Of a stretch of 64,000 nucleotides of DNA, positions 41,487 through 42,190 are shown in pieces (positions within the stretch are counted from its first letter, which is position 1; every line of letters starts with the position of its first letter). This DNA is from Escherichia coli 042. Its GTDB lineage: Bacteria; Pseudomonadota; Gammaproteobacteria; Enterobacterales; Enterobacteriaceae. Location of the stretch: the NCBI RefSeq assembly GCF_000027125.1, contig NC_017626.1; one strand, given 5' to 3'. A program made the translations under genes and the position numbers. Below the pieces are notes generated by a model that saw nothing but the letters and a program-made list of their open reading frames with translations, was not told where the DNA came from and did not search any database.

Positions 41487-42190
41487 AGAGTAAAACTCAT
41501 TAGGATTACCAGAATTCGGCCAATGCATTGCAAAAATGACATACAAAGAGAGATGTGTGCAGGCACTTAGCCGCGAGGGGCATGGCGAAGCCATACAGAA
41601 AGCACCAGCATTCAGAACTCCTGTGAAAGCGGCATAGTGGCCGCCTGTGCAGGAGTTTTGCTATGACCCGTATCGTGCTGAACGTTGCCACCCTATGATG
41701 CGATTAAAAAAACTCACCGTCGAGCCGATGATTGACGTCAATGCTATCGGATGATGCCGGGGGTGTTCCGGAAGGAATTCCTTGTTTCCCGAACTGTTAT
41801 CCACAAAATTATAACGATGAGCAAGTAAAGACCGGTTGGTGGCAGTACTGACCGGTCTGTGATGGAAGATTAATTTCACCTTAAATCCTGGTGCTGTTAG
41901 GATGCTGACGTTTTTCGGGTACACCATTCAGATTATGCAAATGAAGACCCAATCAAAAAATAAATATCCCTGAATATAATATATTTATAGCACCCATATC
42001 TCATCCTGGGCGATAACCAAACCATTTTTGATTAACAAATGAAACAACTGCAACAACTGCAACGTTCTTATTATTTCTGGAAAACATCTCGCAAAAACAA
42101 AACAGCATGCAAAAATCCGCTTTTTTTAAATGATTTTTCGGCGTAATTTTCGCACATACATTAATGAGTAATATATGTAAGGTATTGGTA

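Follow-up and report, generated by a model that had tools for sequence, protein, structure and literature searches.

A decayed nadS end and g70-g92 gene pair between the CX5R gene and yiiE of Escherichia coli 042

What is a GC-richer and seemingly gene-free patch with a strong hairpin doing inside an AT-rich islet of the Escherichia coli chromosome? The question arises from a stretch of 64,000 nucleotides of E. coli 042 (the window), in which the genes stand in the E. coli-type order fabY (yiiD), islet, yiiE, yiiF and fdhE, and in which the gene for a CX5R protein is parted from yiiE by the spacer under study (41487-42163). A sequence-only reading had singled out positions 41560-41930 of this spacer as less AT-rich than the DNA around them, and had proposed that they are a decayed gene (perhaps a former partner of the CX5R protein), a small RNA, or a terminator or attenuator. 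The composition was read rightly: G+C is 0.496 in the patch versus 0.392 in the CX5R gene, 0.364 in the junction that follows the gene (41487-41552) and 0.318 in 41931-42163, the patch being wedged between a CX5R islet of 39% G+C and a yiiE promoter and upstream region of 32%. That it holds no convincing gene was also borne out, as only frames of 30-88 aa occur on the two strands, and a scan of every stop-to-stop frame of the patch returned no match in Pfam, NCBIfam, PHROGs or PADLOC. Here, we trace the patch by comparison with other E. coli genomes and with other Enterobacterales; its features are collected in table 1.

Table 1. Features of the spacer between the CX5R gene and yiiE, in window coordinates.
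Feature	Position	Strand	Basis or remark
CX5R ORF	39633-41486		start more likely ATG at 39672
AT-rich junction after the CX5R stop	41487-41552	+	found only in CX5R-carrying strains; G+C 0.364
nadS (HTH antitoxin) 3' remnant, last ~26 bases	41553-41578	+	alignments to nadS-type strains
Former nadS-g70 spacer, leader of the g70-g92 operon	41579-41662	+	DNA alignment
g70 5' remnant, ATG and first 17 codons	41663-41712	+	tblastn and DNA alignments; ends in poly-A tract
Junction of the ~390-bp deletion	41706-41713		left end in A7/A8 homopolymer
g92 3' remnant, last ~35 codons	41714-41812	+	internal TGA, frameshift near 41760, original stop lost
Stem-loop, 13 pairs, loop GCAG	41829-41858	+	RNA folding; terminator position of g92
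Spacer, hairpin to yiiE duplication unit	41859-41953		right edge of the patch (41930) falls within
yiiE (PGAP-type)	start ~42191		

Locus types between fabY and yiiE

When used as a Megablast query against 5426 complete E. coli genomes, the spacer found a match in 5372 of them, with nested end-points that set several types of locus apart. AR_0013 and 21B8 are of the window type, with a CX5R gene and then the patch. In WP4-S18 (WP4), an alpha/beta hydrolase gene on the minus strand is followed by a 103-aa relE-like gene, nadS and the patch from 41553 on; in fact, matches to nadS-type strains start at query position 67, which is this very window position. E30, Z0117EC0036 (Z0117) and Nissle 1917 are longer between nadS and yiiE, where additional DNA carries annotated hypothetical genes, and E30-type strains carry both the CX5R gene and a cassette made of the hydrolase gene, the toxin-antitoxin (TA) pair and two genes that we call g70 and g92. 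K-12 matches only from 41785 on, and the soil strain SC455, which has another cassette (higBA), shares only about 130 bp before yiiE. Among the 5426 genomes, the patch is covered to at least 80% in 2096 (with 90-97% identity across these ~2096), the g70-g92 region is essentially intact in about 1270, the full CX5R gene is found in 1061, the K-12-like truncation in about 2000 (by subtraction) and the E30-like state in about 320 (from records with two places); these frequencies are approximate, as they come from coverage counts, and the split into types is one that we infer. Outside E. coli, Klebsiella spallanzanii (L016) and three related metagenome contigs (L010-L012) show the order fabY, hydrolase (minus strand), relE-like, HTH, g70, g92, RHH, PIN and fdhE, with no CX5R gene. 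Since this Klebsiella locus is syntenic, the hydrolase/TA/g70/g92 arrangement appears to predate the CX5R islet at this site.

Several further observations concern the genes around the spacer. In Nissle 1917 (L009 904-2661), a ClbS/DfsB-family gene and an ISEc53 transposase gene lie between the hydrolase and relE-like genes, which is further evidence of an insertion hot spot. The window and AR_0013 have an unbroken CX5R ORF (coordinates listed: L001 2183-3997; L007 1686-3500), whereas an in-frame stop interrupts it in strain 21B8, and in many genomes PGAP splits it into halves labelled "hypothetical, incomplete" and "transposase". The CX5R protein had no significant match in Pfam, NCBIfam or PADLOC, and an assignment to the IpgD/SopB family, suggested by its CKSAKDR motif, was dropped for want of a significant match. 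Downstream, yiiE and yiiF are tandem paralogous units (41954-42409 and 42410-42869), and their upstream blocks match as well (a 78-nt repeat with 77% identity and a 26-nt repeat with 73%). In SC455 and Klebsiella, a VapC/PIN toxin gene comes next after yiiF (L006 4051-4667; L010 3490-4106), and this gene is missing in the window (42627-42996); thus, yiiF looks like an orphan VapB-type antitoxin gene.

Remnants of nadS, g70 and g92 and their intact counterparts

The patch can be aligned nucleotide by nucleotide with the DNA 3' of nadS in WP4, E30 and Z0117. Its left edge is the 3' end of an HTH antitoxin gene of the NadS or HigA-MqsA-like kind, identified as nadS by its matches to NCBIfam NF041265 and Pfam HTH_3; the nadS ending GCAAGCACTTAACCGTTAG corresponds to GCAGGCACTTAGCCGCGAG in the window, and, unlike such genes, the patch keeps only some 26 bases and hence no coding capacity. 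Beyond the former spacer, the head of g70 has lost one nucleotide after codon 3, with the in-frame read now MTRIVLNVATL*, and tblastn aligned residues 5-17 of g70 (RAERRHHMARLKK) with 41674-41712 (RAERCHPMMRLKK). The sequence then breaks off: compared with E30 and Z0117, the window and WP4 have gaps in 392 alignment columns, a deletion of about 390 bp that removed g70 codons 18-70, the spacer between g70 and g92, and g92 codons 1 to ~56. What follows is the tail of g92, of which residues 59-73 match 41718-41762 (RRADD*RQCYRMMPG) and residues 73-90 match 41759-41812 in another frame (GGVPEGIPCFPNCYPQNY), with a joint E value of 2.8e-6 for the two segments. Both the deletion junction and the g92 remnant are also seen in L001, L002 and L007. 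The matches to g70 and g92 are thereby collinear over 41674-41812 and broken by a stop and by frameshifts.

The features by which a pseudogene is recognized are all present: collinear similarity to intact genes (by tblastn and by DNA alignment to E30 and Z0117), a disrupted frame (the ~390-bp deletion, the 1-nt deletion, the TGA and the frame switch), and intact counterparts conserved beyond one species (the g92 family, the recurring g70-g92 pair and its invariant motifs). The patch GC content follows from this descent, as it derives from coding and leader DNA of 46-52% G+C (0.46 in intact g70, 0.48 in g92 and 0.52 in the hydrolase gene). With its collinear homology, large internal deletion, frameshifts and premature stop, the patch resembles the gene remnants found at hypervariable loci of E. 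coli, such as TA and islet hot spots. The fabY-yiiE interval itself is of this sort, holding different cassettes in different strains (higBA, relE-like/nadS, yiiF-vapC, IS elements and the CX5R islet). We see no essential difference from other such remnants, save that the decayed genes belong to an unnamed family.

The search for homologues of the spacer that the sequence-only reading had called for led to intact counterparts in E. coli, Klebsiella and other Enterobacterales. Intact g70 lies at 3611-3820 in Z0117 (L005) and at 3585-3794 in Nissle 1917 (L009), and intact g92 at 3885-4163 and 3859-4137, respectively; both genes are preceded by an AGGAG Shine-Dalgarno sequence, and PGAP annotates g70 in neither of these two intact-copy genomes. 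The g70 product (70 aa) is basic and Cys-rich, with the motifs RAERRHH..RLK and TPCxCSCWMCGH, of which RAERRHH and PCxCSCWMCGH are conserved. A 73-aa "membrane protein" annotated in E30 (WP_001550354.1; L004 3111-3332) was considered as the first gene of the pair and rejected, being the frameshift product of g70 after a slip from A8 to A7; this slip and the ~390-bp deletion of the patch share the poly-A tract of g70. For the 92-aa g92 product, a word-indexed search found close Escherichia matches only, and an exhaustive HMMER search found 22 representatives at E < 1e-3, full length and down to 36% identity, with invariant or near-invariant MSxFNTRKDR, GKPKPH, WWxRLYTT, RRAxDR, DPDG and YYW. 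In a scan of one genome per species, relatives of g92 occurred at 13 species loci across Enterobacterales, carriers being Klebsiella spallanzanii, Pantoea, Mixta, Kosakonia, Atlantibacter, Rouxiella, Edwardsiella, Huaxiibacter, Leclercia and Citrobacter. In plasmid and phage collections, homologues were found only on Salmonella IncFIB plasmids and in one short phage record, annotated as hypothetical. Of the 21 homologue loci compared (L010-L029), 10 have a full-length g70 directly 5' of g92, distant ones among them, and an eleventh, L025, has only a fragment of it. Judged by these comparisons, g70-g92 is a real and conserved two-gene module of Enterobacterales.

The nature of the module is less readily approached. 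Neither protein matched Pfam, NCBIfam, PHROGs or PADLOC, sequence searches of the PDB with g92 (as a profile) and with g70 found no match, and neither did an Rfam search of the intact module. An AlphaFold2 model of g92 from a 24-sequence alignment was poor (mean pLDDT 57, pTM 0.30), and thus unfit for a fold search. Constraint on g92 was not seen within E. coli, where two intact alleles differ mostly at non-synonymous positions (3 to 1, by eye). As for the suggestion that the patch is what remains of a CX5R partner, such as a secretion chaperone, the two genes do not keep company with the CX5R gene: g70-g92 occurs without it in many E. coli (Nissle 1917 among them), in Z0117 and in distant genera, with the pair standing by itself in other Enterobacterales, and, since the pair is present without a CX5R gene at the syntenic Klebsiella locus as well, it is not a CX5R partner.

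The stem-loop and the conserved leader

The hairpin that had been noticed from the letters, two arms 14 nt apart, was confirmed and extended. Its Watson-Crick core (AGACCGGT at 41829-41836 and ACCGGTCT at 41851-41858) is an 8-bp inverted repeat of a kind that is not rare by chance in DNA, whereas the RNA hairpin is rare: as plus-strand RNA, 41829-41841 pair with 41846-41858 in 13 pairs, three of them G.U, at -20.3 kcal/mol (z = -3.6; none of 200 shuffles as good), and only 50 of the 31,983 36-nt plus-strand windows in the 64-kb sequence reach -20 kcal/mol or lower. The G.U pairs make it a structure of plus-strand RNA, and it is strand-asymmetric, as the minus strand of the region never reaches -19. 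Taken as a whole, 41800-41960 shows no unusual degree of structure (z = -1.7 on the plus and -0.1 on the minus strand). In the intact alleles of E30, Z0117 and Nissle 1917, the hairpin begins 8 nt past the g92 stop; it is present in L001-L005 and L007-L009, the K-12-like strains keep it, and the apical pair is G.U in the window and in K-12, A-U in WP4 and G-C in E30 and Z0117, with the pairing unbroken.

Is this, then, the terminator that had been supposed? Most homologues in other genera bear a GC hairpin and a T-run within ~5-15 nt of the g92 stop, that is, a canonical intrinsic terminator (CCCGGCCAAC-N7-GTTGGCTGGG-T7 in Klebsiella; GCCCGC-N4-GCGGGC-T5-7 in several others), and the E. coli stem-loop is thus positionally equivalent to the operon terminator. 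The likeness to Rho-independent terminators lies in a G+C-rich stem-loop that follows the stop codon of intact g92 by a few nucleotides, at a place where homologous loci have textbook examples. The hairpin differs from them in that 3 of its 13 pairs are G.U and that no U-tract follows the stem, the tail reading GTGATGGAAGATTAA / GUGAUGGAAGAUUAA; a terminator scan did not call it, and any terminating activity is putative. The terminator suggestion was accordingly right about position and fell short on the U-tract. A stable intergenic hairpin with no U-tract also recalls REP/BIME and other repeated intergenic elements; unlike these, the hairpin region is single-copy (among 5372 genomes, the median number of places is one) and shows no REP consensus, and REP-derived Rfam models match elsewhere, at 42914-42996 (ES036, 45.8 bits and above gathering, together with naRNA4).

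A possible and tentative alternative holds that the hairpin still works as a terminator or attenuator and shields yiiE from transcription coming from upstream; it would then be the selected feature, and the rest of the patch irrelevant DNA. It sits in terminator position, it is kept in all four locus types sampled, K-12 included, and no other terminator-like plus-strand structure lies between the CX5R stop and yiiE. On the other hand, the U-tract is lacking, and conservation of the hairpin does not significantly exceed the background: between two E. coli haplotypes, 23 of 26 arm positions are identical, against ~80% in the flanks, and selection on the hairpin is not apparent, since its arms are not clearly better conserved than their surroundings. 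Moreover, the soil strain SC455 has no hairpin, yet keeps yiiE. That the hairpin still hinders transcription, or protects a 3' end, ahead of yiiE would be a real but minority prospect.

Between the hairpin and the yiiE duplication unit, which begins at ~41954 (repeat D2), the DNA is 81-83% identical in two E. coli haplotypes and absent from Klebsiella, where ~60 bp separate the terminator from the promoter region of the RHH gene. In the E30/Z0117 haplotype, a 34-codon ORF (MNGRFHLKPWCGKAADFFGYTILMKQMNTQSKKYS; L004 ~3702-3806, L005 ~4202-4306) comes right after the hairpin; the equivalent frame of the window has no start codon, and this ORF is probably not a gene.

At the other end of the patch, the leader of the g70-g92 operon (window 41610-41657; L016 ~2170-2226) has changed less between Escherichia and Klebsiella than the coding DNA next to it. 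The block TCAGAACTC..TGAA.GCGGCATAGTGCCGCC..CTCAGGAGT is near-invariant, and the conserved stretch includes a small hairpin, GCGGCA-TAG-TGCCGC (in the window GCGGC at 41629-41633 and GCCGC at 41640-41644, with a 1-nt insertion), and the g70 Shine-Dalgarno sequence AGGAG (41651-41655). This leader may be a promoter or a regulatory leader; a consensus promoter scan of leader and patch called none, and a promoter in it would be a conjecture from conservation.

Given so striking a conservation, a relic transcript ending at the hairpin is conceivable, albeit unsupported, and two further readings build on it. We consider it unlikely that the relic has been exapted, with leader and stem-loop giving a ~200-nt non-coding RNA or a yiiE insulator; a related thought is that intact g70-g92 might be a small selfish or defence-like module of a new kind, with the relic recording its repeated loss. 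It is quite improbable that the patch encodes a regulatory small RNA of ~200 nt, running from the g70 leader (~41646-41650) to the hairpin and kept for a function of its own. The unusual conservation of the leader, a hairpin stable on the plus strand only, and the carriage of the relic by ~2096 genomes at the identity given above would agree with such an RNA; yet its body would consist of pieces of two pseudogenes that a deletion has brought together, the scan called no consensus sigma-70 promoter, the hairpin ends with no U-tract, and the K-12-like strains (~2000 genomes) have lost the 5' two-thirds with no replacement. Rfam gave no match within the patch or 41480-42000 at E <= 10, with only chance-level hits further downstream, and literature searches found no known small RNA in this spacer. 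For yiiE, yiiF and yiiD, the literature offered only a genomic-SELEX peak of the RpoS holoenzyme in the K-12 yiiD-yiiE spacer, which is not specific to the hairpin. The small RNA suggested in the sequence-only reading has therefore found no backing in Rfam, promoter scan or literature. Esr41, a small RNA of EHEC, was considered as an occupant of the spacer and ruled out, being located in OI-43 between z1181 and z1182.

Origin of the patch

Very probably, the patch is a non-coding relic of the nadS end and of the g70-g92 operon, left by a ~390-bp deletion together with an inherited stem-loop, through ordinary gene decay at a recombination hot spot. The homology, the deletion and the decay are observed directly in the alignments. 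The older arrangement would have been hydrolase (minus strand), relE-like toxin, nadS antitoxin, g70, g92, stem-loop and RHH genes, an order still found in Klebsiella and in roughly one E. coli genome in four. A deletion of ~390 bp from the slippery poly-A tract of g70 would then have brought the head of g70 up against the tail of g92, with frameshifts and a stop arising subsequently in the two pieces. The AT-rich CX5R islet would have come to adjoin upstream, leaving the last ~26 bases of nadS. The stem-loop after g92 survived, and if any part of the patch still does something, it is likely to be this one: as plus-strand RNA, it could hold up or end transcription running on from the CX5R gene, or shield the 3' end of the transcript ahead of the yiiE promoter region. 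Any activity that the hairpin may have today is inferred, as is the succession of deletion, CX5R juxtaposition and K-12 deletion, which comes from a handful of representative genomes rather than from a phylogeny.

How the CX5R gene came to lie there may be read from E30, in which a segment of ~103 bp (window 41553-41657) is present twice and flanks the hydrolase, relE-like and nadS genes (DR1, L004 1186-1288, and DR2, 3001-3105; 94/103 identical); this flanking repeat is found in strains that combine the CX5R gene with the hydrolase-toxin-antitoxin cassette, and the window is identical at 164 of 169 positions to the sequence 3' of the CX5R gene of E30. The islet would have been brought next to the patch by recombination between such E30-type repeats, or by replacement. 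The window type could thus stem from an E30-like one through the ~103-bp repeat, or the E30 type could have arisen from a cross of window and Z0117 types. That the ~103-bp segment is instead an attachment-type site for the hydrolase-toxin-antitoxin cassette, and that the patch was kept for this purpose, is very improbable: the direct repeat does flank the three genes in E30, but neither the cassette nor the DNA beside it has an integrase, a repeat of this length would suffice for ordinary homologous recombination, and the cassette is vertically syntenic in Klebsiella with no repeat. Scarcely credible is a genuine small protein gene among the short frames that do exist (88 aa on the minus strand, 41661-41927; 39 or 35 aa on the plus strand), for none matches Pfam or NCBIfam, the plus-strand frames are out-of-frame tails of g70 and g92, and the 88-aa ORF is no older than the deletions, as it spans both the deletion junction and the end-point of the K-12 deletion.

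The locus of K-12 has been shortened further. A deletion there has linked the start of the CX5R gene (21 codons, with a GGAGG ribosome-binding site) to the g92 tail, so that the equivalent of window 39672-39734 runs straight into that of 41785-41828. The resulting chimeric ORF of 35 codons (MVANINLIKQESYSVVNLEKQLSRTVTNKIITMSK; L003 3937-4044) stops 1 nt before the hairpin, and its 5' part is labelled a pseudogene by PGAP.

Overall, the proposal of a decayed gene was the one that stood, as the end of nadS and pieces of g70-g92 bear a deletion, frameshifts and a stop. The odd patch is thereby explained as ordinary gene decay, and the idea of a partner gene for the CX5R protein is removed. The fabY-yiiE spacer, that of K-12 included, now makes sense as a single ancestral cassette cut down by nested deletions, and the hairpin offers a natural test case for a stem-loop in terminator position that would have lost its U-tract. 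The analysis also brings to notice the unnamed g70-g92 module of Enterobacterales, a more interesting lead than the relic itself.
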